64,000 bases of DNA, from IMG/VR virus record IMGVR_UViG_3300038465_000039, positions 1 to 64,000 of that record; one strand, written 5' to 3'. Below are positions 1,385 through 25,223 of the stretch, piece after piece (positions within the stretch are counted from its first letter, which is position 1; every line of letters begins with the position of its first letter). The translations under genes were made by a program, and so were the position numbers. The stretch comes from a virus. The notes under the pieces are model-generated. The model did not search any database and was not told the origin of the DNA. It saw only the letters and a program-made list of their open reading frames with translations.

Positions 1385-1407
1385 GCTTTCCCGAGAGGAC
1401 CAGAAAA

Positions 1408-3405: not shown

Positions 3406-3418
3406 TAACAAATGATGC

Positions 3419-4168: not shown

Positions 4169-4180
4169 GGAGCCGTCGTC

Positions 4181-4618: not shown

Positions 4619-4619
4619 T

Positions 4620-5060: not shown

Positions 5061-5227
5061 TGGACTACCCGAATGCGTCTTCTGTAATTGCAGCGGCACT
5101 TTCCACCGGAATGACGACGATGGGCGAACTCTCGACGGTTTTGTCGATCGAGGACTGCTATCTGATGATCGAGGTTTCGGCGGTCAACAATTATAATAGT
5201 CGGCCACCTGAGACGAAGACGAGGTAG
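5060..5227 (+). CDS. Tail assembly chaperone T segment (-1 frameshift extension GT); absent from ORF track
   Basis: MDYPNASSVIAAALSTGMTTMGELSTVLSIEDCYLMIEVSAVNNYN...; -1 frame relative to G and open back to slippery A_AAT_TTT at 5000-5006. Confidence 0.75.
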   Translation: MDYPNASSVIAAALSTGMTTMGELSTVLSIEDCYLMIEVSAVNNYNSRPPETKTR

Positions 5228-5231
5228 TCAA

Positions 5232-6926
5232 GTGGATATTGACGAACTTGTCGTAAAACTTTCGTTGGACCCGTCAAAATTTACCGCCGGCCAGAAAGAA
5301 GCGCTCGACTCGTTTCGTAAAACCGAAGAGGAGTTCACGAAGCGCCTCTCCAATCTCGAAGCTAAAAACAAGAACGTCGCCTATTCGTTCGGTGATGTCA
5401 CGCATGCCGCAGAGGGATTGTTCGGAGCACTCGCCGGTGCCGGCATGGTGGCGTTCGCACATGATGCGATAAATTCTGCGGCGGCCTCTCAGCGAATGGC
5501 GACGAACATCGGTATAGCCCGCAATGAACTCGATGCTTTTGGAAAAGTCATCGAGCGTAACGGTGGCAACGCCGACAGCGCCGCTGCATCTCTCAAGTCT
5601 TATGCCGACGCTGTTCAGAAATGGAGAACCGGGCACGGAGATACTGAGTTCTTGACAGGCATCAGTCAGATCGGTGGAGCAGATATCAACAAGGCAAGCC
5701 CGCTGGAGATAGTCGAAAAGTTTGCAAAATTTGCCGAAACTCATAACGCGCAACAGATAAACCAGACCGGTGCCAGACTTGGCATGTCGCAGGAAATAAT
5801 CAACACAGTTATCGGTGGATTGAAGAGGTTTCAGGATCAGTATCAGGACGCGATGAAGGTTGTTCTCAGTCCCGAACAAAATAAGAGGTTGGCGGACAAT
5901 CAGGAGGCTTGGGTTAAGCTTGGTCAGGCACTCGAGTTTGTATCGAAGAGCGGACTTTCCGATATTGCGCCGGCATTGAAGGGTTTTGCGACTGAAGCCG
6001 AATATCTCATACGTCAGAATCCAGCCCTAGCCAAAGGCACTTTGGCTGTTTCAGCTGGTATAATCGCGATCTCCACATCGCTTGCAACACTTTCCGCGAC
6101 GCTGGCAGTATTCGGCGCACGAACGCCGGCGTTGTGGGTTTTGCGATTACTTGGGCTGGTGAGCCTGCCCGCTGCAGCAGTTGCCGTGAGCGCCGGTGCC
6201 GCGGCTGGAATTACAAGCCAAGTGATGGGTGACGCCAAAGCAAAGGAATGGGATGACGCTCATCCATGGCTCAAAAAAATAGACGCATTCTTTGGTTTGG
6301 CTGGCGCTGGCGGTGCGCCAACTCCCGGAGGCGGCGGCGGTGGGTCGGTGCGCGATGCTGGTATGGCCTATTTCAAGTCGCAGGGATGGAGTGATGTACA
6401 CGCCGCGGCGATCATGGCGAACGCACAAGGGGAAAGCTCGTTCAATCCTAACGCGAGCAACGATGTCGGCGGTGGCCACAAAGGACTTTTCCAGTGGGGC
6501 AAGAGTCGTCGGCAACAGATACTTGCGGGGACTGGAATCGACGTCTGGAATGCTACGGCGCAGAAGCAGTTCGAGGCCGCTCAGTGGGAGTTAACTCACA
6601 CCGAGAAAGCGTCCGGGGAAGGGCTAAAGAAATACAACGATCCCGGCATGGGTGCGGCGTTCTTTGATTATTCCTTTGAGCGCAGCGGAGATAGTACCGA
6701 GCAGCAAGCGAAACGTGGGCGGATGGCGCGAAATATATTCGACCAGCACCGCCTCTCCGGAGACGGAGGCGGTAACACCATGCAGATAGCCTCAGTCTCG
6801 GTCAACATCACGCCGCCTCCCGGTACGACTAATCCTCGCGAGTTCGGCCGGTTGACCGGCCAAGCGCTTCAGGACTATGCGAAGTCGATCGCCAACAACG
6901 CCAACAGCGGCCAAACGAAGCAGTAG
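5232..6926 (+). CDS. Tape measure protein with C-terminal phage tail lysozyme domain
   Basis: IDELVVKLSLD start, Ala-rich helical body, AAAIMANAQGESSFNP...GLFQW...R lysozyme motif. Confidence 0.85.
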   Translation: MDIDELVVKLSLDPSKFTAGQKEALDSFRKTEEEFTKRLSNLEAKNKNVAYSFGDVTHAAEGLFGALAGAGMVAFAHDAINSAAASQRMATNIGIARNELDAFGKVIERNGGNADSAAASLKSYADAVQKWRTGHGDTEFLTGISQIGGADINKASPLEIVEKFAKFAETHNAQQINQTGARLGMSQEIINTVIGGLKRFQDQYQDAMKVVLSPEQNKRLADNQEAWVKLGQALEFVSKSGLSDIAPALKGFATEAEYLIRQNPALAKGTLAVSAGIIAISTSLATLSATLAVFGARTPALWVLRLLGLVSLPAAAVAVSAGAAAGITSQVMGDAKAKEWDDAHPWLKKIDAFFGLAGAGGAPTPGGGGGGSVRDAGMAYFKSQGWSDVHAAAIMANAQGESSFNPNASNDVGGGHKGLFQWGKSRRQQILAGTGIDVWNATAQKQFEAAQWELTHTEKASGEGLKKYNDPGMGAAFFDYSFERSGDSTEQQAKRGRMARNIFDQHRLSGDGGGNTMQIASVSVNITPPPGTTNPREFGRLTGQALQDYAKSIANNANSGQTKQ

Positions 6927-6929
6927 CGC

Positions 6930-7526
6930 ATGGCAAATGGTCTTCCTCCGCTTCCTCCCGGCGTCAACGTTTTTGTCGATGTCGCGCTGCTGACTGCGGA
7001 TGCGGTATCGTTGCCGAGTCAAGCAAACCAGGAATGGGGTCTCTATCTCAATGGTGTCCCCGTTGTCGTCGCCGACAACTTACTGACGTTCGGGTTCAAG
7101 AAGGGTGCCAGAATATCGAAGTACCCGCAGGAGCAGGGAGCCTTTGCGAGCTACAACAAAGTGACGAACCCGGCTGAACCAACGCTTCGTTACTCGACGG
7201 GCGGATCGGTTGCAGATCGAAAGGTGTTCTTGGCTTCGGTCGCACCGCTGATCAACGATCTAAATCTCTATGATATCGTGACACCGGAAGTTACCTATCC
7301 GAACTACAACGTCATCGACTACGACTACGACCGCAACGCCGATAACGCAGGTCTCTTGGAAGTCGATGTCCGGGTCGAGGAGATCGTCGTCGCCGGCGCT
7401 TCGACTTTCAGCAATACGTCCCAACCGAGCGATCAATCTCAGGTCGATCAGGGCACGCTGAATCCAGGAATAGCGATCAATCCGATCAATGCCACTTTTG
7501 ACCAACGATTCGGCGCGATTGGATAG
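6930..7526 (+). CDS. Baseplate/tube initiator (Dit-like) protein
   Basis: ISKYPQEQGAFASYNKV, LYDIVTPEVTY motifs; directly after tape measure. Confidence 0.7.
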   Translation: MANGLPPLPPGVNVFVDVALLTADAVSLPSQANQEWGLYLNGVPVVVADNLLTFGFKKGARISKYPQEQGAFASYNKVTNPAEPTLRYSTGGSVADRKVFLASVAPLINDLNLYDIVTPEVTYPNYNVIDYDYDRNADNAGLLEVDVRVEEIVVAGASTFSNTSQPSDQSQVDQGTLNPGIAINPINATFDQRFGAIG

Positions 7527-7532
7527 AGATAA

Positions 7533-7841
7533 ATGCTGATCGTTCCATTGCAACCTATTCCAAATCAGACATTGCAAATAGTGCTGGCAAATCAAAACTG
7601 TCAGCTATCGGTCTACCAGACGCCGGGCGGTCTCTTTATGGATGTCGAGGTCAACGATGCACCGATCAAGATCGGAACGATTTGCCAGAACTTGAATCGC
7701 ATCATCAGAAATCTCTACCTCGGTTTTGTTGGCGATTTTGTTTTCTTCGATAACAGCGGGACTGACGATCCTGTCTATTCCGGTCTGGGTTCACAGTTTC
7801 AGCTTTACTACCTGACTGCTGCCGAGGCCGGTGACGTATGA
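7533..7841 (+). CDS. Baseplate plug-like protein
   Basis: VPLQPIPNQTL..LANQNC, DPVYSGLGSQFQLYY motifs; synteny. Confidence 0.65.
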   Translation: MLIVPLQPIPNQTLQIVLANQNCQLSVYQTPGGLFMDVEVNDAPIKIGTICQNLNRIIRNLYLGFVGDFVFFDNSGTDDPVYSGLGSQFQLYYLTAAEAGDV

Positions 7842-8749
7842 GTTTCGTAAAACGAAATCTTGGGTTCACATTCCAGTTCGGGATCGGGACCAACGGTGCC
7901 GGTGGTTACAATACCGTCCAACTCCCGGACGGTCTTTGGGCAACGGTGAAGATCACTCAACAAGGTGGTCCGGCTTTCAATGAAGCCAACATCCGTATCT
8001 TTGGAATGCAGCAGTCCACGATGAACCGTCTATCGCGCATCGGCCTCCAGCCGGCTGCGATGAAGAACAATATCGTAACTGTGACCGCAGGAGAACTCGG
8101 CGGCAATATGCCGATAGCTTTTGTCGGCGGCATCAAGGAAGCATTCCCGGATTTTTCCAATCCGACTGAAGCCGCGATGACAATCAGCGCTGATACCGGA
8201 ACACTTGATGCGTTGAAACCGTGCTTGCCGACGAGCTATGCGGGTAGCACAAACGTCGTCGATATCATGCAGTCTCTTGCAAAGCAGATGGGCTACACGC
8301 TGGAAAACAATGGCGTCACCGGGCAACTGACTGACCCGTATCTTCCAGGCAGCGCCAGAGATCAGGCCGTCGCAGCCGCAGCGCAAGCCGGCATCTACGT
8401 CTACTTCGAAAATACCAATGGCGTGATGTCGATTGTGCCGATGGATAGTTCAAGAAACACAACGGCACCGACAATATCACCCAACCAGGAAATGGTCGGC
8501 TATCCGGCTTATGTCGGCCCCGGAATGATCTCTCTGAAAACCGAGTACAATCAAAATATCAAAGTGCTTGGGAATATTGTCGTCAAGGATTCTATCGTTA
8601 ACAGTTCTGGTTCGGGTAGGGGTGCCAACACATCGAATGGCGCCAACGGGACGTGGCGCGTCATGCAACTAGCTCATGATCTTTCGACGTTGCCTGATGG
8701 GCCGTGGTTCACCGAGATTCCGTTAGCGCAACTAACGTCGCTTCAATAG
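7838..8749 (+). CDS. Baseplate hub protein
   Basis: MSFVKR, ENNGV..QL.DPYLPGS, IS...MVGYP, GPWFT motifs; synteny. Confidence 0.7.
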   Translation: MSFVKRNLGFTFQFGIGTNGAGGYNTVQLPDGLWATVKITQQGGPAFNEANIRIFGMQQSTMNRLSRIGLQPAAMKNNIVTVTAGELGGNMPIAFVGGIKEAFPDFSNPTEAAMTISADTGTLDALKPCLPTSYAGSTNVVDIMQSLAKQMGYTLENNGVTGQLTDPYLPGSARDQAVAAAAQAGIYVYFENTNGVMSIVPMDSSRNTTAPTISPNQEMVGYPAYVGPGMISLKTEYNQNIKVLGNIVVKDSIVNSSGSGRGANTSNGANGTWRVMQLAHDLSTLPDGPWFTEIPLAQLTSLQ

Positions 8750-8750
8750 A

Positions 8751-9404
8751 ATGGGAGCCAATCAAGACGGCTACATGGGGCAAGCCGACCCCATGGCGTG
8801 GGCACATCCGTATAATGCGCTGAGTTTTATGATCAACCAAGTGATCGCCGGGAAGTGGACGATCACGCTAGGTCAGATCAAAAGTGTTAGTGGTGGTGGC
8901 ATCGGTTCACCATGTATCGTCGGCGTTCAACCGATGGTCAACGAGATCGATGGATACGGAAATCCGACTCCGCACGGCATCATCAATGGCGTTCCCGCCT
9001 TTCGTCTTGGCGGAGGAACCGGAGCGTTCATCGCCGACCCGGTCGTCGGCGATATCGGTATCCTCGCCTGTGCCAGCAGCGACATCTCTGCGGTCAAGAA
9101 CAACCGAGCTCCATCAAACCCGGGTTCTTTTCGAACATTCGATCCAGCGGACGCCATGTATCTCGGTTCCCTGCTGGGCTCGGCTCCGGAACAATACGTC
9201 CAGATCACGCCACAAGGCATCACCATTCAGTTTGGGGCCGGGATCAGTATTACCCTAGCCTCGACCGGAATAACGCTCCAGGCAGGCTCCGCGGCCATCC
9301 TGATAGCCACTGACGGGACGATCACGATCAACGGTATCGTGTGGGATACGCATCTGCATGCTGTGACGACAGCTCCCGGAGTGACCGGCGTTCCGGAGGC
9401 GTAG
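8751..9404 (+). CDS. Baseplate central spike (Gp138/gpV-like)
   Basis: VQPMVNEIDG, DPVVGDIG, DISAVK...PGSFRTFDPADAMY; C-terminal THLH metal-binding tip. Confidence 0.8.
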   Translation: MGANQDGYMGQADPMAWAHPYNALSFMINQVIAGKWTITLGQIKSVSGGGIGSPCIVGVQPMVNEIDGYGNPTPHGIINGVPAFRLGGGTGAFIADPVVGDIGILACASSDISAVKNNRAPSNPGSFRTFDPADAMYLGSLLGSAPEQYVQITPQGITIQFGAGISITLASTGITLQAGSAAILIATDGTITINGIVWDTHLHAVTTAPGVTGVPEA

Positions 9405-9405
9405 G

Positions 9406-9762
9406 ATGGCTGGAAATTCTACCCTGCTTTTGGATGCCGATCTCTGGGATTTGGCGGTCGATTCTGCGGGGAACATCGCGGTAGCCGGACCGCCGTATTC
9501 TCAGGCTCAGGATGCATCAAGTGCGATCCGTCTGTTTCTCGGCGAACTCTATTACGACACGACCAAGGGTGTGCCGTATGAGAACATCCTTGCTCAGGCA
9601 CCGAATTTCCCGCTGCTGAAATCCTACATGGTGGCGGCGGCTCTGACCGTTCCAGGTGTTGTTTCCGCGGTCTGTTTTATTTCTTCAATCGTTGATCGCA
9701 ATGTCTCCGGACAGGTCACGATCACGAATTCCGCGGGTCAGACAGCAACGGCGGGATTCTGA
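9406..9762 (+). CDS. Baseplate wedge/sheath initiator protein
   Basis: [14 protein letters not shown]...[23 protein letters not shown]. Confidence 0.7.
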
Positions 9763-11639
9763 TGCCAACAAATGTGCCTCAGGTCAGTTTTGGTGCGAAT
9801 GGTTTTTCGGCGCCGAGCACGACGCAGGTTTTAACGGGCGTCATCGCGGACATCCAGGCCGCGTTTGGCAACACGCTCAATCTTTCAATCACGGATACCG
9901 ATTCTCTCGCCACGCCACAGGGGCAGTGGGCGACGAGTTGGTCCGCTCAGATAACGAACACGAATAACGCGTTCCTGCTTCAGTCACAAATGACCGATCC
10001 GAGCTATGCTTTCGGAATCTGGCAGGATGCGATTGGTGAAATCTACTTCATTCAGAGAAAGCCGTCACAACCGACCGCGCTACAGATCGCGTGTAATGGT
10101 GCTCAAGGTGTCCCGATTCCGATTTCCCCGGTAGCGGCTACAGTCAAGGACAACGCCGGAAACATCTATCAGTGCATCCAGGCCGGGACGATTCCGGCCG
10201 GTGGATCGATTACACTTGCATTTGCCTGTACTGTTCCGGGTCCGATCACGGTCCCCGCAACTGTTACTCCCTATCAAACGATTCCTGGCTTCGACAGCGC
10301 GACCGTTGTATCGGGTGTTCAGGGCATCAATGTCGAAAGCCGTTCGGAGTTCGAAGCCCGCCGGCAGGATTCAGTTGCCGGAAACAGTTTCGGTGCCATC
10401 GGTTCAATCATCGGCGCCGTGGCCTCGGTATCCGGTGTCATCGATTATTACGGCTACAACAACAACACGGCCGGATCAGTTACGATCAATGGCGTCTCGA
10501 TTGCTCCTTATTCGATCTATATCTGCGTCGCCGGTGGTGCACCGTCGTCGGTAGCACAGGCTATCTTCTCCAAGAAGGGACCAGGCGCTCCCATGACGGG
10601 GAGCGAGACCGTCACGGTCTATGACAGCAATCCTCTCTATGCGTCGCCGCAACCCTATACAATCAAGTATCAGATCGCGGTACCGCTTCAGTTTCTGTTC
10701 GCCGTCACGATTGCTGCCGGTCCGAACGTTCCATCGAATGCACTGGCCCAGGTTCAGAGTGCTTTGCTTGCGGCATTCACCGGCAATGCGCTTGCGGCGA
10801 GCTTCACCGGATCTATTGCTGGTACGATTCTAACGGTCTCCGCCATCGCTTCCGGAACTCTTGCCATTGGACAGGTCATTTCTGATCTAACCGGCAACGT
10901 CACGGCCTTGACCGCCATCATCGCACTTGGAACCGGGACAGGTGGGATAGGGACGTATCAGGTCAACACGACCCAGAACGTGCTTTCAGAGGCGATGACG
11001 TCGGAAGCTCCACCGGCCCAGGTCACCGTCCCCCGTGCAAGGATCAATTCGACCGTCATTGCAGTCCAGTATGTTCCGGCGATCGCCGCTCTTGGTCCAT
11101 GGGCGCTCGTCAAATCGATCTTTGCGGGTTCAGCCAACGAGTCCGATGCGGTTGTCGTCGGTCATATCAACGGGAATCTTCTGACGGTGACTTCCGTTAC
11201 ATCGGGGACGATCTTAAACGGTGATACCCTTTTCGATACCTCGGGACTGATTCCGAACGGGACCAACATCACATCATTCGGAACCGGAAGTGGTGGGACC
11301 GGTACATACAACATCAACAATCCGCTGACCGTTGGCGCAACCTTCACCGGAAGCGGATCAGGAACGAACCTCACCGTGAGCGCTGTTACCGGCACCCTCT
11401 TGGTGGGACAAGTTCTGGTCGGGACAGGAATCCCGGGAGGCACCACGATTCTGTCGCAGACCTCGGGGACGACTGGTGGGGCCGGTGTTTACGTGACAAG
11501 CGGATCAACGACGGCATCAGGATCGTGTTCATCGAACGAGACAATCACTTGCGCATCCGCGGATCAGAACGCCGTGCAGGTCAACGCAAATCAGATACCC
11601 CAACTCGTCGCTCCTAACATCACGTTGGCGCTGTCGTGA
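9762..11639 (+). CDS. Baseplate J-like wedge protein with three inserted beta-rich domains
   Basis: [38 protein letters not shown] motifs. Confidence 0.85.
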
Positions 11640-12298
11640 GCGATACGGGGCCGCCTTACCCTCCGAGTCCGGTTTCCGGCTCGAACGGAATCGGAGTTGG
11701 CGCGATCGGCATCATGTCGATCGGTGCTATCCCTGCTTACGATCCTTGGCCGAAAATAATCAGTCAGTACAAAAATTCGCCACGAATGGACGCGATGATT
11801 CTCGCCTTCAATGCGGCGATGGATCAGACCGAGAACATCTCAAACCTATTCGATTTTTGCTGGAACGTCCAAACCGCAGTCGGTTATGGCCTCGACGTGT
11901 GGGGTCGTATCGTTGGCGTCAGTCGCATCCTTTCTTTCCCGAGCGGTGTCGCCTATCTCGGATTCGAGGAAGCCAACAGTTGGACCGGATTCGGGCAGGG
12001 AGGCTTCTACACGGGTTCCGGGGTTTCGACCAACTATGTCCTGTCGGACTCCGATTTCCGCACCCTGATCCTCGCCAAGGCCGCCGGCAACATATCTGGC
12101 GGGACCATTGAAGAAATCAACGAAATCCTGCTGACGCTCTTTCCCAACCGCGGTCCTTGTTACGTTGCGGATGGCCTCAACATGAGCTGCACGCTGACAT
12201 TCAAGTTTGCGCTCACGCCCGTCGAGTTGGCGATCATCGAACAGGCCAACGTTCTTCCGATTCCGTGTGGCGTCGTCGTCAACATCAGTCAGCTATGA
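11636..12298 (+). CDS. DUF2612 baseplate protein
   Basis: [50 protein letters not shown]. Confidence 0.8.
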
Positions 12299-12308
12299 GA
12301 AAAAATCC

Positions 12309-13460
12309 ATGAAGAGATTTTTGGCGATCTTCGCATTAGTGTTTGCGACGGGTCCAGCGCTTGCGCTGACGCAAGGAAGTCCCCCGCCTGCGTTTCCGAT
12401 TCCGTGGGGTAACTCGGCTGGCAGTTCATATATAAGATCGATACCGGTCCCATCACAAATAGGGACACAAAATTGTGCAGCTTCTTTAACCGATGGCTTT
12501 CCGCCCCTTAGCTTCGTCCCATCCGTCGCCGGTGGTTGTCCGCCTTTTGGTGCTGACTTCAACGGCATCCTGAAGCAGATCACGCAATGGTCGCAGTGGC
12601 AGAAAGCGGGTGGTCCCGTATTCTACGATTCGGCTTTCGCGTCTGGCGGTAGTGGTGGCTACCCGAGTGGCGCTATCGTGATGTCGGCAGTTGTTCCCGG
12701 TGATCACTGGATGTCGACCGCGGACAACAACACGACGAACCCTGACGCCGGCGGAGCGAATTGGGTCCAGGCTCCAGGTGAAATACCGATCGGAACGCCG
12801 GTTCAATCGATCATCGCGACGGTTCCAACGGGCTATGTTTCCGCGAACGGCAAGACGATCGGCAACGGGTCATCGAACGGGACGCAACGCTCCAACGCCG
12901 ACACTCAGTTTCTGTTCTCCCTGCTGTGGAGCGGTTGCGCGTCGTGCCAGCTCTACAACAGCGCCGGGACGCCGATCTCGAGGGGTGCCACAGCCGCGGC
13001 CGACTTCGCGGCCAATGATGCGATTGCGACAACCAACCTGAACGGCAAAGGGTTGATGGGAGCGGACTCGCAAAACGGTTCAACCTCGAGCAATCTGACC
13101 GGTGTTCCAGTCACCAGCGGCAACACGACGACACCGGGGTCGATCGTCGGAGAGAACCTGCATGCGCTGGTGACCGGCGAACTCGCCGCGCACACCCATT
13201 CGATCACTGATCCAGGACACAACCATGCGATCACTGATCCAGGCCATACTCACACATTGACGAGTGCCATTGGCGGTCAGCACGGCGGCAGCGGCGTCAA
13301 TGGTGGCCAACTGACATCCGGCATAACCAATTCGGCAACGACCGGTATCACGATCAATACGGCAACAACCGGCATCACGGCGACGAACAGTACTGGCTCC
13401 GGTACCGGTCACAACACGGTTGAACTCAGCGCCCTCGTTTGGTGGAATCTCAAATTATGA
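12309..13460 (+). CDS. Tail fibre/collar protein with N-terminal Sec-type signal peptide
   Basis: ATG at 12309; MKRFLAIFALVFATGPALA then baseplate-attachment region (SQIG..AASLTDGFPPL...PPFGADFNGIL..IT, GGYPSGA), collar-like region and HTH..TDPGH tip repeats. Confidence 0.8.
   Translation: MKRFLAIFALVFATGPALALTQGSPPPAFPIPWGNSAGSSYIRSIPVPSQIGTQNCAASLTDGFPPLSFVPSVAGGCPPFGADFNGILKQITQWSQWQKAGGPVFYDSAFASGGSGGYPSGAIVMSAVVPGDHWMSTADNNTTNPDAGGANWVQAPGEIPIGTPVQSIIATVPTGYVSANGKTIGNGSSNGTQRSNADTQFLFSLLWSGCASCQLYNSAGTPISRGATAAADFAANDAIATTNLNGKGLMGADSQNGSTSSNLTGVPVTSGNTTTPGSIVGENLHALVTGELAAHTHSITDPGHNHAITDPGHTHTLTSAIGGQHGGSGVNGGQLTSGITNSATTGITINTATTGITATNSTGSGTGHNTVELSALVWWNLKL
13191..13253 (+). repeat. 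Intragenic 27-bp tandem repeat (HTHSITDPG/HNHAITDPG)
   Basis: cgatcactgatccagg occurs twice, 27 bp apart. Confidence 0.7.
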
Positions 13461-16400
13461 TACGCTCTTTCAAATCTGCCATCGCTGGATTGATCGCGCT
13501 CGTCGCGATTCCGTGCGCTGCATATGCTCAAACGAGTCCAAATTTTACGTTTGGTCAGGTCCCCACGCCGGCGCAGTGGAATGCTGCGTTCGCCGGAAAA
13601 CAGGATGTTTTCGCGTCAACACCCTGTCTCACCATCGGATGCACTTTTACCGGCGGTATAATCACGGCGCCCTCAGCCACCTATTCCGCAGGCATCAATC
13701 TCCCCCCCGGCACGGCACCGACATTGCCGATCGATGGCGATTTGTGGACGACTACTGCTGGGCTCTACGCTCGGATCAACGGATCGACGATTGGACCGCT
13801 CGGAACCGCGGCATGCCCGACTTGCGCGGTGACGAATGCAACTAACACGTTCACGGCGGCGCAGATCATCAATCTCAATTCGGCGACCTTGCCCGCCGCA
13901 CAAACCGGGACGGCCTTGCAGATCGGCGGCGCGGCAGGAACGACGGTGCGCGCGGAGTTGGACGCCTTTGCGGCCACACCTCGCTTTACCTGCGTGCGGA
14001 CGGATGGAACGATTGCAGCTAAGACAACATTGCAGAGCGGCGACGAAATCTGCTCACTCAATGCGTTCGGCTACAACGGCAGCGCCGTGGTCGGCCCGCA
14101 GGCCGCCATCCGCACCTACGCCGCGCAGAATTGGGTTGCAGGGAGTGCTCTCGGCACGAACATGCGCCTCGGGGTCACTGCCAACGGGGCAACGGCGCTG
14201 ACCGACGCGCTGGGGATTGAGCAGGACGGTGGGATCACCGCAGGTTCTTTGATCGGAACCAGCATGGGCGCGGGCAACTTCAATGCGCTCGGCTACTATG
14301 TCAGCGGCACCAAGGTTGCCACCAGCGCCAGCACACCAATTGTTCTCACCGCTGGCGTCCTGACATGCCCGACCTGCGCGACCGTCCCGGGCGGCCCGAC
14401 GACGATCGGCGACATCGCGATCTTCAGTTCGACGTCCGGCGTGGTCGGCGACGCCGGCGGCGGCATCCCGAACCTTCCGCTGGTTCACCCATCGTCCGGA
14501 AATAACTTCGGGGCCGGCTGCAATGGGACCGCGCATCAAGCATGGTGGGTCGATCAAAATCTTTGTAGCACGGCCGACGTCTTGCAGGTCGTCAGCAACG
14601 ATCCGAGCGCGCTCGCGGTTTTCACGTTAGGCGGAACGCCAGTTTCGGGCCACGTCTATACCTTCAACCTGATCTATGGCGGCACGACTAAGACCGTCAC
14701 CTACACGGTGCAGCCTGGCGACGGACTCAATAACGTCACGGCCGGTCTCGTCTGCGCGATCGCCAGCAACACGACGCTGTTCAACCTTAACGGCGGATCG
14801 TGCTCCGGCGGCGTCATCACGCCCGCGACCCCGACGACCTCCTACGGCGGCTATGCCGGCGGAAAGCAGATCGGCTACACGGTCATCAATACCAACACGT
14901 CGTTCGCGTTCGACTACAACAGCGCGAACGACATGCAGATGAGCTATTCGGTCTCCGGCGGCGGGACCGAAACCATTACGTCACCGGCCGGATGGTTCTC
15001 CGGAACGCTTTACAGCGCCGGTACTTCGACGGGCTCCGCGAACGCTCAGGTGATCGCGGCGAGTGGCTTCACGCTGGCGGCCGGAAAATCCATCAACTTT
15101 ACGGCTGGCTTCAGCAATTCCGGCGCTGCGACGCTGAACGCTCAATCGACCGGTGCCGTCGCGATTCAGAAGTACGTTAACGGTGCGCTAACGGCCCTGA
15201 CGGGTGGCGAGATCGCCGCGGGAACGAACTACACGGTCGCCTACAACGGTTCGACCTATACGCTGAACCTGAACGCCGTTCATGTCGCGGGCGGCAGCAC
15301 GGCCAGCACGAACTATCAGTTGCCGAACGCCTTCGACAACAATCCCGCGCTTGTGACCGGACGCGGTCCTGGCGGCATCCCGCCCGCGCCCGGAAGTGCG
15401 ATCTTCGCGCTGTATGCGACCGGAGCGCAGACGGGTAGCTCCCCGACGGCCCGGACCGTCAACTACGGCGTGATCGCGAACTTCGTTAATAATTCCAGCA
15501 CCGGCGCGCTCAAGAACGCGTGGATCTTGCAAAACGCGAACGGCAGCGGGACGTTCTTCGGCGACGGCGTTTATTCAAATTACGGGTGCGAGGGCGTCTT
15601 CGGAATCTCAGCGGCCTGCGTCGTCGACAAGGGACAGGCGACCTTCAACGCCGGCGTCGGTTATTGGATTTCCGGGACATTGGACGGGAACGGCGCCGAA
15701 CTCTACAAGAGCGCCAGCACGATCCGGCTCGACACGTTCTCGACCGGCTGGCCTATCATCCTGAACTCGAGCGGAGGCGTCGGCATCAACGCGACCCCGA
15801 CCGCAAACGGAGAGTTCAACAGCGCGCTAGGCGGATTTTTCTCCGGCTCTCAGGTCCCGGCGACCGGGACCGGAATCGCGATCGGGCTGAACTCCGGAAA
15901 CGGCTACATGATCGCGGAGAACTTCGGGACATCGACGTTCCAGCAGTTGATATTTCAGGGCTCCCAGGTTCAGCTAGCGCCGAATGGCATCAGTGCTAAC
16001 GGCGTTTCAATGATTTCCAACGAGTTGTTTCCAATCACTGACAACCAAGTCTTGCTAGGCGACACGGCAATTCCGCATCGCTTCATCAGCGTATCGTCGA
16101 TGGCGTATAACTTCGGCGGTTCGACGAGCGGCAACCAGCAGCAGAAGACGGCCGCGATCACGAGCGGGACTATTACGTGGCCGGCCGGAACCGTCGATTT
16201 TAGCGCGACAGGGGGAACGTCGCAGGTCGTCAAGCAGACCAGCGCGGGCGGAATCTTTACGGTCGCGCGTCTGGCTTGCGCCGATCTTTCCGATTCAAGC
16301 ACGGGATGTTCGGCGGCTTCCGGTATTACGGCCATAACCGGCGATGGTACCGCGACCGGACCTGGCTCAGCAGCCTTCACGCTAGCGACCGTCAACGCCA

Positions 16401-18376
16401 ATACCGGGGCGTGGGGAAGCGCAACGCAATCGCCGCAGTTTACCGTCAACGGCAAAGGTCTGATCACCGCAGCCGCGAACGTCACTATCACGCCGGCGGT
16501 CGGCAGCATCACGGGGCTCGGAACCGGGGTAGCGACCGCGCTCGGCGTCAACGTCGGGACCGCGGGCTCTCCCGTTATTAACGGTGGTGTGCTCGGAACT
16601 CCTTCGTCGGGCGTCGCCACCAATCTGACCGGGACCGCATCTGGTCTAACGGCCGGCAATGTGACTACCAACGCGAATCTGACAGGTCCGATCACGTCGA
16701 TCGGCAATGCGACTTCAATCGCGGCGCAGACTGGAACCGGAACCACGTTCGTGATGTCGGCCGCTCCGTCGATCGCAGGCGGTACGCATACCGCGATCAC
16801 GTCGCTAGGTATTCGCGACACCAGCGCGGCATTCGACGTGACGCTGGCGGCGGTTTCGTCCACGGCGCTGACGGCGGGCCGAACCTTAACGTTCGACGTC
16901 GGCAACGTCGCGCACACGCTGAAGCTCGGAACTACCGCGAACACGATCACGTTCCCGAATGCGGCCTCTTACAATGTTTTAACGGATGCTGCTGCGGTTA
17001 CGGGCGCGCAGGGTGGCACTGGTCTGACGACCGCTGCAATCGGCGACATCATGTACGCGTCCGCCACGACGCCGGTGTGGGCCCGGCTCGCGGATGTCGC
17101 GACCGGTAGCGTCTTGGTCTCGGGTGGAGTCAATACCGCGCCAGCCTATAGCGCGACGCCGTCGGTCACGAGCATCAATGTCGCGAGCGCCGGTAGCTAC
17201 CAGCAGAACGGCTCGACGATCCTGACGACCACCGGGTCGGCCACGTTCACGACTTCGGTTGGTATTGGTGCCAATGCTGCGAACACTACTGGCGGGAATC
17301 ACAACACCGCTGTCGGTTACCATGCCCTAAATATCAATCAGACAGGCACCGACAACACTGCGCTTGGCTACCTAGCGCTGGCTGCTAACAATTTAGACTC
17401 AGGAGTGCATGGGATACAGAATACTGCTATTGGGTCGAACGCGCTAGCTGCGAATACGACCGGATATAACAACGTTGCGGTTGGCGCAGCCGCGCTTACC
17501 TCGCATCTGAGCGGCAACAACAATATGGGTGTCGGTCAGGCAGCTTTGCAAAATCTTACGACCGGAACCGACAACTCCGCGATTGGCAATGCATCGCTTC
17601 AGACGTTGGTCAGCGGTTCTCAAAATACGTCGATCGGCTCTGCTGCAGGCCAAGGAACGACCGCCGGCGATAATACCTACGTGGGATATGCGGCGGGCTT
17701 CAGCGACACCAGCGGCGCGAACAACATCGTTGTCGGAGCTAATCCGAACGTCAACCGAGGTCCGACGACCGGAAGCAACAATATCCTAATTGGATACGAT
17801 CAGGACTTGGTCTCACACACGGCCTCGAATCAAATGTCCATCGCCAATGCCATCTTCGGCACCGGTCTGACGGGTACCGGAACGACGATCGCCGGTAAAA
17901 TCGGCATCTTGAACAACAATCCTTCGGTGGAGTTGGACGTGACAGGAGCCATCAAGGCGAGCTTGACCTTGACGGTTGTCGGCATGAGCAACACCGCGAC
18001 GACGAGCGCGGTCTGCTACAACACCGGCACCGGACTTTTGACCTACGACGGTACGATCGGCACCTGCACGGTGTCGGACGAACGCCTGAAGAACATGGGC
18101 GCGCGCATCGCGAACGCGCTCGACAAGCTGCTTCTGATCAACGGCGTGAACTACACTTGGAAGGACTCGGCCTATGGCTCCGGTCCACAAATCGGCGTCG
18201 GCGCGCAAACCGTCGAGAGGGTGTTTCCCGAGCTAGTTCAGACCGGCTCCGATGGCTATAAGAGCGTCGATTATCAGCGCCTGACCGCACCGATCATTGA
18301 GGCTTTGCGGGAACTAAAGGCCGACAACGACAATCTCCGCGAAGAAGTCTCGCAAATTAAAAGGGTACGGCGATGA
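13457..18376 (+). CDS. Giant tail fibre/adhesin with signal peptide, NTAxG beta-helix repeats and C-terminal S74 chaperone
   Basis: ATGA-coupled start; MIRSFKSAIAGLIALVAIPCAAYAQ; Gly/Thr/Ala-rich; NTAVGYHAL-type repeats; SDERLKN...GVNYTWK...IGVGAQ.VE.VFPELV. Confidence 0.85.
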   Translation: MIRSFKSAIAGLIALVAIPCAAYAQTSPNFTFGQVPTPAQWNAAFAGKQDVFASTPCLTIGCTFTGGIITAPSATYSAGINLPPGTAPTLPIDGDLWTTTAGLYARINGSTIGPLGTAACPTCAVTNATNTFTAAQIINLNSATLPAAQTGTALQIGGAAGTTVRAELDAFAATPRFTCVRTDGTIAAKTTLQSGDEICSLNAFGYNGSAVVGPQAAIRTYAAQNWVAGSALGTNMRLGVTANGATALTDALGIEQDGGITAGSLIGTSMGAGNFNALGYYVSGTKVATSASTPIVLTAGVLTCPTCATVPGGPTTIGDIAIFSSTSGVVGDAGGGIPNLPLVHPSSGNNFGAGCNGTAHQAWWVDQNLCSTADVLQVVSNDPSALAVFTLGGTPVSGHVYTFNLIYGGTTKTVTYTVQPGDGLNNVTAGLVCAIASNTTLFNLNGGSCSGGVITPATPTTSYGGYAGGKQIGYTVINTNTSFAFDYNSANDMQMSYSVSGGGTETITSPAGWFSGTLYSAGTSTGSANAQVIAASGFTLAAGKSINFTAGFSNSGAATLNAQSTGAVAIQKYVNGALTALTGGEIAAGTNYTVAYNGSTYTLNLNAVHVAGGSTASTNYQLPNAFDNNPALVTGRGPGGIPPAPGSAIFALYATGAQTGSSPTARTVNYGVIANFVNNSSTGALKNAWILQNANGSGTFFGDGVYSNYGCEGVFGISAACVVDKGQATFNAGVGYWISGTLDGNGAELYKSASTIRLDTFSTGWPIILNSSGGVGINATPTANGEFNSALGGFFSGSQVPATGTGIAIGLNSGNGYMIAENFGTSTFQQLIFQGSQVQLAPNGISANGVSMISNELFPITDNQVLLGDTAIPHRFISVSSMAYNFGGSTSGNQQQKTAAITSGTITWPAGTVDFSATGGTSQVVKQTSAGGIFTVARLACADLSDSSTGCSAASGITAITGDGTATGPGSAAFTLATVNANTGAWGSATQSPQFTVNGKGLITAAANVTITPAVGSITGLGTGVATALGVNVGTAGSPVINGGVLGTPSSGVATNLTGTASGLTAGNVTTNANLTGPITSIGNATSIAAQTGTGTTFVMSAAPSIAGGTHTAITSLGIRDTSAAFDVTLAAVSSTALTAGRTLTFDVGNVAHTLKLGTTANTITFPNAASYNVLTDAAAVTGAQGGTGLTTAAIGDIMYASATTPVWARLADVATGSVLVSGGVNTAPAYSATPSVTSINVASAGSYQQNGSTILTTTGSATFTTSVGIGANAANTTGGNHNTAVGYHALNINQTGTDNTALGYLALAANNLDSGVHGIQNTAIGSNALAANTTGYNNVAVGAAALTSHLSGNNNMGVGQAALQNLTTGTDNSAIGNASLQTLVSGSQNTSIGSAAGQGTTAGDNTYVGYAAGFSDTSGANNIVVGANPNVNRGPTTGSNNILIGYDQDLVSHTASNQMSIANAIFGTGLTGTGTTIAGKIGILNNNPSVELDVTGAIKASLTLTVVGMSNTATTSAVCYNTGTGLLTYDGTIGTCTVSDERLKNMGARIANALDKLLLINGVNYTWKDSAYGSGPQIGVGAQTVERVFPELVQTGSDGYKSVDYQRLTAPIIEALRELKADNDNLREEVSQIKRVRR

Positions 18377-19215
18377 AGCACCCATTCGAAGTCCTTCGGC
18401 CGGAATACTCGCAGCTGCTGGCCGCCATGCGGGTCCGGCCGGAATGCAAGAAGCTCGTCGACGAGGTCGCTGTGAAGCTCGTCGGCTATAAGACCCGCTA
18501 CCAGGCGGTGACCGACGCCGACGGCGTGCCGGTCGTGTTCATCGGCCCGTCGAATGAGCGTGAGGACAATAGCGACTTCACGAAGAACCCCGCGCAGGGC
18601 TGGCCGCTGCATGCTGTGTCGAAATGGATTCCCCACAATGGTCCCTTCCCGGACTGGAAGACCGCGGCGATCGCGGCCTACCGGCTGAACGGACTCGACC
18701 GGATCGGCGCCGCGAACTGGACGTGGGAGTTGATCTGCTTCTACGGCGAGATGTTCAACGGCTTCGGCTACCGCGACTTCCACCGCATGCACTCGCCCTA
18801 CCTGTGGGGCGGCACGAACATCCAGATGGTCGGGAAGTACACATCAGACGGTGAGTTCGATGCCGGCCACATGGACACCCAGCTCGGCATCATCCCGATC
18901 GCGCGCCGCATGGTCGAGCTCGACCCGTCGCTGGCGCTCCCGGACGCGCCCTACGTGCCGGCGCCGCCGATCGCGTCCGGCATCGCGGCAGAACCGGACG
19001 CCGACGCCAAATGGGTGCAGCAGACTTTGAACGCCCTCGGCTTCGACCCGCCCGTGAAGGCCACCGGCAACTACGACCGCTCGACCAAGCTCGCGGTCGA
19101 GCGCTTCCAGGACAGTTGGGGGCTGGCCGACGTCGACGGTTTAGTCGGGGACAAGACTACCGCGGCGCTGCGCAAGGCGCTGGAGAACCACCAGGCGGCG
19201 GAGAAACCGAAATGA
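18373..19215 (+). CDS. Endolysin: lysozyme-family domain plus C-terminal peptidoglycan-binding domain
   Basis: E.FNGFGY....HSPYLWGGT...GKY.SDG.FD...DTQLG; VQQTLNALG...AVERFQ...GL.DVDGLVG.KT. Confidence 0.85.
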   Translation: MKHPFEVLRPEYSQLLAAMRVRPECKKLVDEVAVKLVGYKTRYQAVTDADGVPVVFIGPSNEREDNSDFTKNPAQGWPLHAVSKWIPHNGPFPDWKTAAIAAYRLNGLDRIGAANWTWELICFYGEMFNGFGYRDFHRMHSPYLWGGTNIQMVGKYTSDGEFDAGHMDTQLGIIPIARRMVELDPSLALPDAPYVPAPPIASGIAAEPDADAKWVQQTLNALGFDPPVKATGNYDRSTKLAVERFQDSWGLADVDGLVGDKTTAALRKALENHQAAEKPK

Positions 19216-19442: not shown

Positions 19443-19628
19443 ATGCGCTGCGCGGTCGTCGTAGTCGTGCTATTATTCGTTGTGCCAGCTCACGCAGACA
19501 ACAACCCATTTTCCGGTGCGCGATCAATCAAGGTTTCGATGCGCCACGTTCATCATCCGAAATGGTGCGTGCGGCATTGGAACTATGACTACGATCAGAA
19601 TGTGCCAATCCGGTGCGAGGACAAATGA
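19443..19628 (+). CDS. Small secreted peptide (2 Cys in mature part)
   Basis: AGGAGG RBS; hydrophobic N-terminus ending in AHA. Confidence 0.6.
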   Translation: MRCAVVVVVLLFVVPAHADNNPFSGARSIKVSMRHVHHPKWCVRHWNYDYDQNVPIRCEDK

Positions 19629-19747
19629 GCAAAAAATTTTGGATCACGATATCAGTGCTGATCATCGCTATCGCCGCGATTGATATTGCGCTTGATCGCG
19701 CGACTGATGAAGTCTTGGCCGTCAGGATAGGGGCGCAGGCGCGATGA
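19625..19747 (+). CDS. 40-aa single-TM peptide
   Basis: MSKKFWITISVLIIAIAAIDIALD...; ATGA overlaps at both ends. Confidence 0.5.
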   Translation: MSKKFWITISVLIIAIAAIDIALDRATDEVLAVRIGAQAR

Positions 19748-20013
19748 AACGGATCATTATTTTGGTTGCTCTGCTGGCGAGCCCGGCAGCACATGGAGCG
19801 GATTGGACCGTTACCAAAACCGTCAAGTGGTCGCTACTGGATCGCGTAGCACAAGCCCTATGTGAAGCCGAGCGAGATGATTGCGATGCAGATTGGCGTT
19901 GCGGTATCAACCCTGCTTGGACAACATGCCTGACGATAGGAGTTACAGGCAGCGCGGCGGTATGGACACAATATCGCGACAAAGCACAGCGGGCATTGGA
20001 GGCAACAAAATGA
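19744..20013 (+). CDS. Small secreted Cys-rich protein
   Basis: MKRIIILVALLASPAAHG signal; 4 Cys. Confidence 0.6.
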   Translation: MKRIIILVALLASPAAHGADWTVTKTVKWSLLDRVAQALCEAERDDCDADWRCGINPAWTTCLTIGVTGSAAVWTQYRDKAQRALEATK

Positions 20014-20276
20014 ATTACATATTCGCCGCAATCTTCATGCTGCTGCTGGCGAGTCCGGCGATGGCGCAGATCGCCGGCCAGCCAGCGCATCGCGATTTGA
20101 CCCCGGACGGTTTCCCAGCTGGAAAGCAGGGGCATTGTTGGGCCTGCATGCACGGCTGCACTCCAAAGCAGGACGCCGAATTTTGCGGATGGCCTGTGCG
20201 CAACACCGTCAACCAGCCAATGGAGCCGGAAGCGGACCGTCGTTGTGGCCCCTATGGCTGCATGGGGGAGAAATGA
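20010..20276 (+). CDS. Small secreted Cys-rich protein
   Basis: MNYIFAAIFMLLLASPAMA signal; 6 Cys; GGAGG RBS. Confidence 0.65.
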   Translation: MNYIFAAIFMLLLASPAMAQIAGQPAHRDLTPDGFPAGKQGHCWACMHGCTPKQDAEFCGWPVRNTVNQPMEPEADRRCGPYGCMGEK

Positions 20277-20431
20277 TCCACGCCATCTCAACGTGCGTGT
20301 TGATGGCGGGGTTGCTTCTTTGGTGGGTCTCTGACTGTGCCAACGTTGCTTATGGACAAAAGGGCTATTGTGCCGGTCCCGGTTGCACGCCTAACGGCTG
20401 CGGTCACTGGACTTTGGGGACAATGGGATGA
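20273..20431 (+). CDS. Small membrane/secreted Cys-rich peptide
   Basis: MIHAISTCVLMAGLLLWWV...CAGPGCTPNGC; ATGA coupling. Confidence 0.5.
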   Translation: MIHAISTCVLMAGLLLWWVSDCANVAYGQKGYCAGPGCTPNGCGHWTLGTMG

Positions 20432-20571
20432 GCACACTTCTTGCCTACGCCGATCTTTCTCCGGGCCTCGACGTCGACGGCATCGTGCGGGATTTTGTCG
20501 TAGGCATCAGCTTCCTGGGCGTTGGCTTGCTGGCGCTCGCAGGACTGGCCTTTGTGTGTTTGCGCCGATGA
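20428..20571 (+). CDS. 47-aa single-TM peptide
   Basis: MSTLLAY...FVVGISFLGVGLLALAGLAFVCLRR; ATGA coupling. Confidence 0.5.
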   Translation: MSTLLAYADLSPGLDVDGIVRDFVVGISFLGVGLLALAGLAFVCLRR

Positions 20572-20708
20572 CGTGCTGCGATGCCATCACATGGGCCGTC
20601 GTGGTCGCGGTGATCGGGGCCGCGCTCTACGTCTCGCCCGACTTCATCGGCTGGCTGCAATTCGCTTGGTATTGCCGGAATGGCTGTGCGGCGAGCTTCG
20701 GCGGCTGA
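20568..20708 (+). CDS. 46-aa membrane peptide with Cys
   Basis: MTCCDAITWAVVVAVIGAALYV...WYCRNGC; ATGA coupling. Confidence 0.5.
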   Translation: MTCCDAITWAVVVAVIGAALYVSPDFIGWLQFAWYCRNGCAASFGG

Positions 20709-21657: not shown

Positions 21658-21772
21658 TGCTAAAAGGCAACACGCCAGCATAATCGTTCCATTGCCGCTT
21701 CAAGAGGCTTGCAGTGCATCGGTGCGAGAGTAGCGTCCGCGCACTCTGCAACCCTCAATTTTGGAGACGGCA

Positions 21773-22522
21773 ATGAAACGAATTGTTCTCGCGGCACTCG
21801 CCGCTTCTCTGCTGATCGCGCCGCTGGCGCGGGCGGCTGATCTTCCTGCAAAGGCCCCGGCTGCGGCCACCATCAACTTCACGTATCCGACGCTCAACGG
21901 ACTCATCGTTGAAGTTTTCACCGAAGGCGGCGGCAGCTCCGTCGTCGCATCGGTCCCCGGTATTCCGCCGGCCAGCCTATCGACCACCACCGCCGGCATC
22001 GGCGGCACGCTCGGCTACATGTGGACTCCGAAGCTCAGCCCCGTATCGTTTTCGTTCGAAGGTCATCTTGAAGCTCAGAACTTCAACGGCAACAACGCGG
22101 GCATCAGCGTACAAGGGCCGCTGCGGCTTGAAGCCGCGGTCATCGCCTGGGCGCCGTGGTCGAGGGTCTTCGCGGCGCTGCCGTCTCTCTGGAATCCCTT
22201 CGCATCTCTGTCGCCGTTCACGCTGCCGGCTGGCTTCACGGCGCAGGGCAACGCGCTTGCCGGCCTCGGCCTATACGGCACCGGCGCCGACATCTCCACC
22301 GCCTATCAGGGCCTTCAGGCCGGCAAGGTGTGGCGCGTGAACCCGGGACTCGAGGCGATTACGGCGCAGCCGTTGGTCGGCGGCGGTGCGATTCGTATCT
22401 TCGCGAAGTGGGACTTCCTCGGCAACTCGAAGATTTTCGGAAGCGTTCCAGCGAACAGCAACCCTACCATTTCGACTCTCGGTACCAATGGTTACCGCGC
22501 TGGTGTCGGCTACGCGTTCTAA
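21773..22522 (+). CDS. Outer-membrane beta-barrel protein (Omp25/RopB-like)
   Basis: Signal peptide, then ADLPAKAP; amphipathic strands; C-terminal beta-signal RAGVGYAF. Confidence 0.75.
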   Translation: MKRIVLAALAASLLIAPLARAADLPAKAPAAATINFTYPTLNGLIVEVFTEGGGSSVVASVPGIPPASLSTTTAGIGGTLGYMWTPKLSPVSFSFEGHLEAQNFNGNNAGISVQGPLRLEAAVIAWAPWSRVFAALPSLWNPFASLSPFTLPAGFTAQGNALAGLGLYGTGADISTAYQGLQAGKVWRVNPGLEAITAQPLVGGGAIRIFAKWDFLGNSKIFGSVPANSNPTISTLGTNGYRAGVGYAF

Positions 22523-25139: not shown

Positions 25140-25193
25140 TCTTCCATCGAGGTTAGGGCTGAGTTGGCGTTGCAAGCGCCGCTCGGCCCGATT

Positions 25194-25223
25194 GTTATGT
25201 TCCCGCATCGGCTGGGGTGTCAA
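25194..25223 (-). promoter_or_regulatory. Sigma70-type promoter for tnpB, -35 inside the right TIR
   Basis: Minus strand TTGACA-N18-CATAAC. Confidence 0.5.

Follow-up and report, generated by a model that had tools for sequence, protein, structure and literature searches.

The window analysed here, positions 1 to 64,000 of the IMG/VR virus record IMGVR_UViG_3300038465_000039, carries two tail-fibre genes, fibre 1 and fibre 2, directly behind the baseplate genes of a contractile-tail module, and both open with what reads as a cleavable signal peptide. Comparison with their relatives suggests that these leaders very probably point to an undescribed assembly route, in which the host-recognition gear of this uncultured phage folds in the periplasm and not, like the other particle components, in the cytoplasm. 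A first-pass annotation, made from the letters of this DNA, had proposed that the fibres are exported and oxidised before they join virions built without them. That they reach an oxidising compartment by export now appears well supported by the co-variation of leader and cysteine pairs across homologues. The whole record has 89,260 bp, of which the window is the first 64 kb, and its CheckV completeness is 92%. The two genes and their parts are the following.

12309-13460, plus strand: fibre 1, 383 amino acids; start ATG at 12309, stop TGA at 13458-13460
12309-12365, plus strand: fibre 1 leader, 19 amino acids; MKR, a hydrophobic core, G-P and A-L-A, with a predicted signal peptidase I site after A19
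12366-12773, plus strand: fibre 1 anchor domain, residues 20-155; PHROG tail-fibre families cover residues 28-154
12474-12476 and 12537-12539, plus strand: C56 and C77, a cysteine pair within the anchor domain
12774-13460, plus strand: collar-like distal part of fibre 1; C210/C213 at 12936-12947, His-x-His repeats at 13191-13253
13457-18376, plus strand: fibre 2, 1639 amino acids; start ATG at 13457
13457-13528, plus strand: fibre 2 leader, 24 amino acids, ending A-Y-A ahead of Q25
13529-18073, plus strand: mature fibre 2; conserved N-segment QTSPNFTFGQVPTPAQWN..., a long Gly/Thr/Ala-rich shaft and nine short-range cysteine pairs
18074-18376, plus strand: Peptidase_S74 intramolecular chaperone of fibre 2, from SDERLK; Pfam PF13884 at residues 1540-1594 (44.5 bits; gathering score 22)

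Fibre 1 starts with MKRFLAIFALVFATGPALA followed by LTQ and fibre 2 with MIRSFKSAIAGLIALVAIPCAAYA followed by QTS, the cut being predicted between the two parts, and both signal peptides were found just as the first-pass annotation had spelled them. The n-regions are positively charged (MKR and MIRSFK), the best 9-residue Kyte-Doolittle mean is 3.14 in fibre 1 and 2.87 in fibre 2 versus 0.77-2.29 in the 13 upstream tail proteins, and small residues occupy the positions -3 and -1 (A-L-A after G-P in fibre 1, A-Y-A in fibre 2). Since charged n-region, hydrophobic core and small -3/-1 residues are all present in both proteins, we assigned the leaders to the Sec/signal peptidase I type. A Tat signal was rejected for lack of the twin-arginine motif S/T-R-R-x-F-L-K (KR-F in fibre 1, a single R in fibre 2). 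A lipoprotein signal was rejected as well: the +1 residue is L in fibre 1 and Q in fibre 2 with no lipobox cysteine, and no leader-bearing relative of fibre 1 has a cysteine at +1. A signal-anchor-release (SAR) domain, by definition an N-terminal helix rich in Gly/Ala that is of weak hydrophobicity and has no peptidase site, was rejected on account of the strongly hydrophobic core and the conserved A-x-A site. In the leader of fibre 2, C20 comes after I-P and is unconserved. A charged-hydrophobic-AxA start was found in none of the 13 tail and baseplate open reading frames (ORFs) between 638 and 12298, so that sheath, tube and baseplate are without signal peptides, as had been noted before.

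The reading of the starts was then considered. In-frame ATG, GTG or TTG codons occur in fibre 1 at codons 1, 5 and 11 and next only at 124, and a start bypassing the leader would therefore delete the anchor domain; the earlier statement that no nearby start skips the leader is thus borne out. In fibre 2 such codons occur at 1, 12 and then 90. Codon 20 of fibre 1, the first after the predicted cut, is CTG and has no Shine-Dalgarno-like run ahead of it. The hydrophobic starts might be untranslated or coincidental, and it is true that the start codons were picked by eye and that the Shine-Dalgarno match ahead of the ATG at 12309 is weak. We regard such an artefact as extremely improbable: the leader pattern is kept in 146 diverged relatives of fibre 1 and in about 60 fibre-2-type genes, no alternative start skips the leader ahead of codon 124, and the genes are coupled by ATGA. 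The fibre 2 start overlaps the fibre 1 end in this way and the endolysin-like gene overlaps the end of fibre 2, while fibre 1 starts 10 nucleotides past the stop of the DUF2612 gene.

The conservation of the leader was analysed in the relatives of fibre 1. Among 8,000 scored candidates 1,088 matched at E<=1e-5, 6,991 cluster representatives matched at E<=0.001, and the family occurs at no fewer than 577 places in IMG/VR. The set comprised fibre 1 and 267 listed relatives minus the fragments P0141, P0148, P0174, P0185, P0224 and P0236, i.e. 262 proteins, which were aligned on the conserved PPKF..PWG block. A leader was called when the N-terminal extension had at least 15 residues and its 9-residue Kyte-Doolittle mean reached 2.0 or more, and the -3/-1 residues were tallied in addition. 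By this rule 146 of the 262 proteins bear a leader and 116 are leaderless. The leaders are mostly 17-27 residues long (mode 20) and most start with MKR, MKK or MRR. Their sequences diverge, the charged-hydrophobic-AxA pattern being kept, with A133/G10/S3 at -1, A127/V9/S5/L2/T2/G1 at -3, Pro or Gly at -4 to -6, and Pro or Ala common at -4. In 111 of the 116 leaderless forms the protein starts exactly at the position of the predicted cut, and the signal peptidase I product would therefore be collinear with a leaderless fibre from its first residue. The +1 residue of the leader forms is L72/M49/I11/E7/A6/T1, as if the old initiator Met had been kept or swapped for another hydrophobic residue. 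The comparison shows leaders that appear real and conserved in kind, placed such that the predicted cleavage would recreate the leaderless N-terminus.

The same distribution was found at the DNA level. Of 80 viral loci fetched from IMG/VR, 70 were unique; 25 of these have a leader (24 called by script, L146 by eye) and 45 do not. The 45 leaderless genes are preceded, a few codons upstream, by a stop or by non-leader sequence and are therefore truly leaderless. With about a third to a half of the examined family members bearing it, the leader is not a curiosity of one contig. A search of genome contigs with fibre 1 gave only distant C-terminal matches, the best in Rhodoplanes serenus at 33%, and the search of a plasmid collection gave a leaderless Mesorhizobium relative. 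Neither pointed to a host, for which a soil alphaproteobacterium is a mere guess from composition. The +1 codon in the 25 leader loci is ATG in 6, TTG in 2, CTG in 3 and a non-start codon (CTC, CTT, CTA, ATA, ATC, GAG) in 14, on which ground dual initiation was rejected as a general device.

These data also bear on the explanation that the leader does not serve export: the fibre would stay in the cytoplasm, the hydrophobic start would either tether it to the membrane or serve as a handle in assembly, to be removed afterwards, or would be bypassed by downstream initiation, and the cysteines would oxidise only after release. The Met at +1 in 49 of the 146 leader forms would suit it, as would gene callers that sometimes start at +1 (P0090 is an example), and disulphide networks are described in cytoplasm-assembled virions in the available text of two reports (PMC10811340; a siphovirus tail tube, PMC13576161). 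On the other hand, a non-start codon occupies +1 in 14 of the 25 leader loci, the CTG of the window is without a ribosome-binding run, and all 146 leaders follow the -3/-1 rule of signal peptidase with Pro or Gly at -4 to -6, which a tether would not need. Together with the cysteine and accessory-protein patterns described below, this makes a purely cytoplasmic fibre quite improbable.

The cysteines were examined next to the leader, since their co-variation across homologues had been set as a check by the first-pass annotation; the outcome was clearly positive. All cysteine pairs listed there were found in fibres 1 and 2. Fibre 1 has four cysteines in total, 56/77 and 210/213, whose tightness against random placement reaches P of about 0.02-0.04 only. 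In the family, the pair C56/C77 is present in 135 of the 146 leader forms versus 1 of the 116 leaderless forms. This one, P0090, has a mate in its 90%-identity cluster, P0307, of the same sequence but with 23 additional residues that make up a typical leader; P0090 is therefore a short gene call. P0033 has one cysteine of the pair. In the viral loci the pair was found in 20 of 25 leader genes and in 0 of 45 leaderless genes.

A second cysteine site lies 135 residues further on and was tallied in 130 full-length proteins (97 with leader, 33 leaderless). Here C213 is nearly universal, but the partner cysteine 3-5 residues ahead of it was found in 96 of the 97 leader forms and in only 4 of the 33 leaderless ones, P0090 being among the four; a lone C213 is found in 27 of the 33. 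The number of mature cysteines is even in 130 of the 146 leader forms (none of them with zero cysteines) versus 49 of the 116 leaderless forms, with means of 4.9 and 2.3, and the contrast in parity also holds beyond the anchor domain. Even parity and pair completion thus track the leader, which oxidation after release does not predict. The first pair is never found without a leader, while the reverse occurs in 11 cases; this asymmetry fits an order of export first and disulphide later.

A quick IQ-TREE phylogeny was calculated from 129 full-length proteins with every cysteine masked and P0090 excluded. The leader state changes at least 10 times on this tree, and 6 independent contrasts fall on supported branches. 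Across the 6 contrasts the second pair goes in the same direction in about 5.4 and in the opposite direction in 0.1 (median p 0.06), and the first pair in 5.0 and 0 (p 0.06). An earlier tree run had given 4 of 6 contrasts in the same direction (p 0.125). A FastTree of the anchor domain alone (130 columns) was poorly resolved and offered only 2 supported contrasts.

In some related loci a further gene varies with the state of fibre 1.

Between fibres 1 and 2 in L136, L143-L145, L148-L154, L156, L157, L159 and L166: accessory ORF of about 190-300 amino acids with a K-I-L-K-S-like start

The accessory ORF has a leader in 5 of 5 loci with a leader-bearing fibre 1 (L136, L150, L151, L154 and L156, about three lineages) and in 0 of 10 loci with a leaderless fibre 1, so that all 15 are concordant. 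A leader on the accessory protein that comes and goes with that of fibre 1 is hard to reconcile with a fibre that never leaves the cytoplasm. The copies are homologous (E 3e-38 for the pair tested by BLASTP, 1e-4 to 1e-51 for the others), the ORF is absent from the window, and it had no Pfam or PHROG match; it may be a fibre chaperone or connector. By comparison, therefore, both the cysteine pairs and the accessory protein are seen to follow the predicted leader.

The leader of fibre 2 was followed in the same way. Its relatives, of 901-2,869 residues, nearly all have a leader ending A-x-A ahead of Q. The motif of the fibre-2-type N-domain gave 65 unique matches in viral contigs, one of them spurious, and about 60 of the 64 are leader-bearing (57 with Q at +1, 3 with another residue). 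The 57 leaders have A51/S2/C2/G1/F1 at -1 and A47/V5/S2/W1/T1/C1 at -3. The four leaderless N-domains (L177, L185, L188 and L193) begin M..F[ST]YG.VLT.GQW... and all lie beside a leaderless fibre 1. The IMG/VR ids of their contigs differ in numeric form, and by this form alone they may belong to isolate genomes. A cysteine pair in the N-segment, formed by an early mature cysteine and one just past QW, is complete in 11, missing in 46 and one-sided in 0; fibre 2 of the window is without it.

Mature fibre 2 itself has 18 cysteines, which form nine sequential pairs (57/62, 120/123, 179/199, 304/307, 355/370, 433/449, 711/721, 941/951 and 1520/1537). The gaps are 3-20 residues within pairs and 48-569 between them, and none of 100,000 random placements was equally tight (P<1e-5). 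The family phrog_4636, a tail spike, spans residues 1219-1364, and a sequence search of the PDB with fibre 2 gave one weak match only, to a 'cell wall surface anchor'. At the C-terminus, the S and K of SDERLK, both present in fibre 2, are presumably the catalytic pair of the S74 domain. This chaperone domain works without a cytoplasmic ATP-dependent helper and therefore suits folding outside the cytoplasm.

A fibre 1 gene and a downstream fibre-2-type gene could be paired in 42 entries; in 29 loci, several of them cut, no fibre-2-type gene lay within 6 kb. Both genes have a leader in 14 entries, fibre 1 is leaderless and fibre 2 leader-bearing in 23 plus two with weak leaders (L176 and L201), and both are leaderless in 3. 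A leader-bearing fibre 1 with a leaderless fibre 2 was found in 0 of 42. Three of the four combinations thus occur and the fourth does not, which is why we propose a stepwise spread of the leader from outside in.

For the question whether fibre 1 is the fibre of the virion, its anchor domain was compared with that of known phages. The domain matches the families phrog_12796, phrog_38625 and phrog_1396, 'tail fiber protein'. With tblastn, 62 cultured-phage records matched, and cultured myophages were found to have the same domain at 33-47% identity over about residues 20-155 of fibre 1, among them the Burkholderia phages phiE058 (GP026), PE067 and Bcep1 (gp33) and phages of Xanthomonas, Ralstonia and Pseudomonas; their fibres are leaderless. 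In none of the 62 records does the match cover the leader, and the 40 matches listed all begin at or beyond residue 19. At the positions of C56 and C77, the leaderless relatives that were examined carry Gly and Val/Thr/Ile. In phiE058 the leaderless GP026 directly follows the DUF2612-type GP025, the same slot as that of fibre 1 in the window, and the order DUF2612-then-fibre-1 recurs in the related loci L018-L026. According to the available text on phiE058, GP026 is named a fibre by similarity only and was not detected by mass spectrometry (PMC7266877).

Mature fibre 1 was modelled with AlphaFold2 from 99 sequences (mean predicted local distance difference test score, pLDDT, 82, and >90 over residues 10-230). 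Residues 4-136 of the model superpose on residues 1-126 of the tail fibre of Pa193, whose structure was solved on the baseplate (9b45_2; Z 7.2, root-mean-square deviation 4.0, 121 aligned). The distal part is similar in fold to the receptor-binding domain of T4 gp12 (1ocy, Z 6.8) and to the tip of gp37 (2xgf, Z 6.5). Values of Z 6-7 are middling and were counted only together with the sequence evidence. Foldseek with the model of mature fibre 1 gave no match at E<=0.001, the best being E 2e-3, and a sequence search of the PDB with fibre 1 gave none. No Pfam family, Collar included, matched fibre 1 at E<=0.01. The family phrog_8763 spans residues 122-382, and together with the gp12-like fold this suggests a distal domain related to Collar.

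The fibres could also be exported and yet stay outside the infectious particle, acting from the envelope or after release, for example as receptor-masking or decoy proteins, in release from capsule or debris, or in display on the infected cell, with other receptor-binding proteins used by the virion; display on infected cells or release from them had also been named as the alternative in the first-pass annotation. Export itself is as well supported there as under periplasmic maturation of a virion fibre. Moreover, the 23-25 entries with a fibre-2-type leader beside a leaderless fibre 1 show that exported and cytoplasmic fibres can coexist, and the record is 92% complete with a gene cut at its end. 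Against such a role, fibre 1 is present as a single copy in the 89,260-bp record with no leaderless copy, and all three fibre-like genes seen bear leaders. It occupies the slot of the leaderless baseplate fibre and has its anchor domain, whose exact N-terminus the cleavage would recreate. Leaderless fibre-2 N-domains occur in similar modules (L177, L185, L188, L193), as expected of an ordinary virion fibre. We therefore consider a role outside the particle unlikely.

The third of these genes is a fibre-like ORF of at least 773 residues at 86942-89260 of the record (L135:3942-6260), truncated where the contig stops. Its leader is MKTLRTVLLIFGLTGSIAHA then QA, its eight cysteines form four tight pairs, and its C-terminus, ...CLTSSARFK, is S74-like. 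It had no Pfam or PHROG match. If the genome is circularly permuted, it would lie between the neck genes and the sheath gene.

We moderately favour a reading in which the fibres are exported, fold outside the cytoplasm and then join the particle. Both fibres would be made as precursors with cleavable Sec-type signal peptides and threaded unfolded into the periplasm, where signal peptidase I would cut after A19 in fibre 1 and after A24 in fibre 2. They would fold and trimerise there, fibre 2 by means of its own ATP-independent S74 domain, and the host Dsb system would close the short-range disulphides. Capsid, tail and baseplate would be built leaderless in the cytoplasm. Fibres and particles would meet only once the lysis genes, which lie directly downstream of the fibres, open the inner membrane, and the mature N-domain of fibre 1 would then dock on the baseplate as in its leaderless relatives. 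On the sequence evidence, export and cleavage of the fibres are highly probable and periplasmic disulphides are likely; entry of the fibres into infectious particles at or after lysis seems reasonably probable. We infer the Dsb system as the oxidising enzyme and lysis as the time and place of joining, the latter because no leaderless copy is present, the gene is syntenic with leaderless baseplate fibres, the N-terminus matches, and T4 fibres can attach to fiberless particles.

Beyond this phage, we incline slightly towards a broader picture. In a large group of soil tailed phages, particle assembly would be divided between two compartments. The cytoplasm would be the site for head, tail and baseplate, and the periplasm that for the whole host-recognition apparatus, including the domain that plugs into the baseplate; this apparatus would pass through Sec and be braced by Dsb-made disulphides. 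The halves would unite after the holin opens the inner membrane, and the trait would have spread stepwise from the outermost fibre inwards, dragging accessory proteins along.

Several points speak against periplasmic maturation of the virion fibres. The first cysteine pair is missing in 11 of the 146 leader forms and in 5 of the 25 leader loci and is thus not obligatory. The direction of the phylogenetic contrasts is uniform, but with six of them the corrected test is under-powered, and since fibre genes are mosaic, recombination could transfer the leader jointly with the cysteine pair close to it, as a single block. Disulphide networks occur in cytoplasm-built virions such as phage Milano, so that cysteine pairs alone prove little. 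A leaderless fibre could exist elsewhere, as 8% of the genome may be missing and the third fibre gene is cut at the contig end. It is physically awkward to fit a trimer with chains of about 1,600 residues into the narrow periplasm, and likewise to dock fibres efficiently in a lysate that is undergoing dilution; in T4, fast attachment depends on helpers, according to the available text of PMC3004832.

One known parallel is g3p of the filamentous phages, a receptor-binding protein with a Sec leader that acquires periplasmic disulphides before it enters the virion. A C-terminal helix keeps it in the inner membrane, and it joins the virion as a non-lytic phage is extruded. In contrast, fibre 1 (ending ...VWWNLKL) and fibre 2 (ending in the S74 domain) have no hydrophobic C-terminal anchor, and the particle here is a tailed virion built in the cytoplasm. 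We know of no leader on the fibres of T4. The distal part of fibre 1, with its His-x-His repeats, is like the gp12 receptor-binding domain and the gp37 needle; however, T4 fibres fold in the cytoplasm, whereas a separate fibre pool here would occupy another compartment. In the available part of PMC3004832, T4 fibres are described as made separately and attached to fiberless particles, slowly without fibritin, with gp57A and gp38 as fibre chaperones.

Agrobacterium phage Milano, a soil myophage, has cysteine pairs that stabilise tail, baseplate and receptor-binding parts, and its bonds are intersubunit and lie in sheath and baseplate, as far as the available text describes them (PMC10811340). 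A word search of that paper found none of 'signal peptide', 'periplasm' and 'cytoplasm', and the bonds presumably form in the assembled particle. The fibre pairs described here differ in being short-range, intrachain and linked to a leader. Sec-exported lysis proteins (endolysins and spanins) share the Sec route, but they are lysis enzymes and not virion parts. The available passages describe P1 Lyz as an SAR endolysin that is regulated by a disulphide and uses the host Sec route (PMC3556154), and predict a leader-bearing phage endolysin (PMC8951688). Unlike these, the endolysin-like gene of the window is leaderless.

To our knowledge, textbook tailed-phage morphogenesis is wholly cytoplasmic. 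The literature search, which covered article text, found no account of leader-bearing or periplasm-matured tailed-phage fibres. The signal peptides in the available text of PMC3556154, PMC12210884, PMC5384007, PMC8951688, PMC12309495 and PMC5026251 concern only lysis proteins, Lom, cargo tags of extracellular contractile injection systems (eCIS) and methods. What appears new from the alignments is a predicted leader on the baseplate-anchor domain itself, with the peptidase site at the leaderless N-terminus across 146 relatives. The apparent linkage of cysteine-pair completion to the leader at two sites, and an accessory protein that seems to co-switch its leader with fibre 1, are likewise new.

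If true, a periplasmic branch for receptor-binding proteins would be a new assembly route for tailed phages, and host Sec and Dsb would become phage dependency factors and possible routes to resistance. It could also explain a possible misfolding of such fibres in cytoplasmic expression, and periplasmic or oxidising expression would be needed for engineering and receptor-binding assays. For annotation, gene callers sometimes trim the leader, as in P0090 versus P0307, and such fibres would be put in the wrong class by tools that separate 'secreted' and 'virion' proteins.

The genes around the fibres were assigned by Pfam and PHROG searches of the window ORFs.

638-12298: contractile-tail module
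1408-3405: DUF3383 sheath
5232-6926: tape measure with lysozyme domain
9762-11639: J-like wedge
within 638-12298: tube-like protein, tail chaperone, baseplate hub and gp25-like wedge
11636-12298, plus strand: DUF2612 baseplate protein, leaderless; Pfam PF11041, 177.5 bits; stop TGA at 12296-12298, directly upstream of fibre 1
18373-19215, plus strand: endolysin-like protein, PG_binding_1, leaderless; Pfam PF01471 and PHROG endolysin families

Within the tail module, a repeat-like module matching phrog_21413 and phrog_38233, 'tail fiber protein', recurs in three ORFs: the pre-sheath ORF 638-1384, the sheath 1408-3405 (residues 170-243) and the J-like wedge 9762-11639 (residues 327-414). Between the sheath and tube-like genes lies an ORF of 249 residues with 12 cysteines (3419-4168), which matches an endonuclease VII PHROG family (E 4.6e-10) and probably represents the insertion of a homing-type nuclease.

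A permissive scan of the whole genome for leaders yielded candidates only. Two leader-bearing ORFs lie among leaderless neck genes, at 84352-85461 of the record (L135:1352-2461; 369 residues, Gly/Ala-rich, 4 cysteines) and at 86370-86945 (L135:3370-3945; 191 residues, 6 cysteines); neither matched a Pfam or PHROG family. Behind the endolysin-like gene, a run of small ORFs at 19443-20708, without Pfam or PHROG match, has A-x-A or A-x-G leaders in 19443-19628, 19744-20013 and 20010-20276. Upstream of the tail module, a 118-residue ORF at 151-507 has the leader MKRLFLALAILSMIGPAARA then D and no Pfam or PHROG match. The ORF at 23946-25223 on the minus strand (425 residues) matches the PHROG 'transposase' phrog_506 at E 3.6e-84. 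The protein at 21761-22522, of 249-253 residues, may be an outer-membrane beta-barrel moron, although it had no match in Pfam, PHROG or the plasmid collection. Its leader is MKRIVLAALAASLLIAPLARA then AD, and look-alike N-termini were found at the corresponding position in the related loci L018/L136, L142, L150, L151 and L154.

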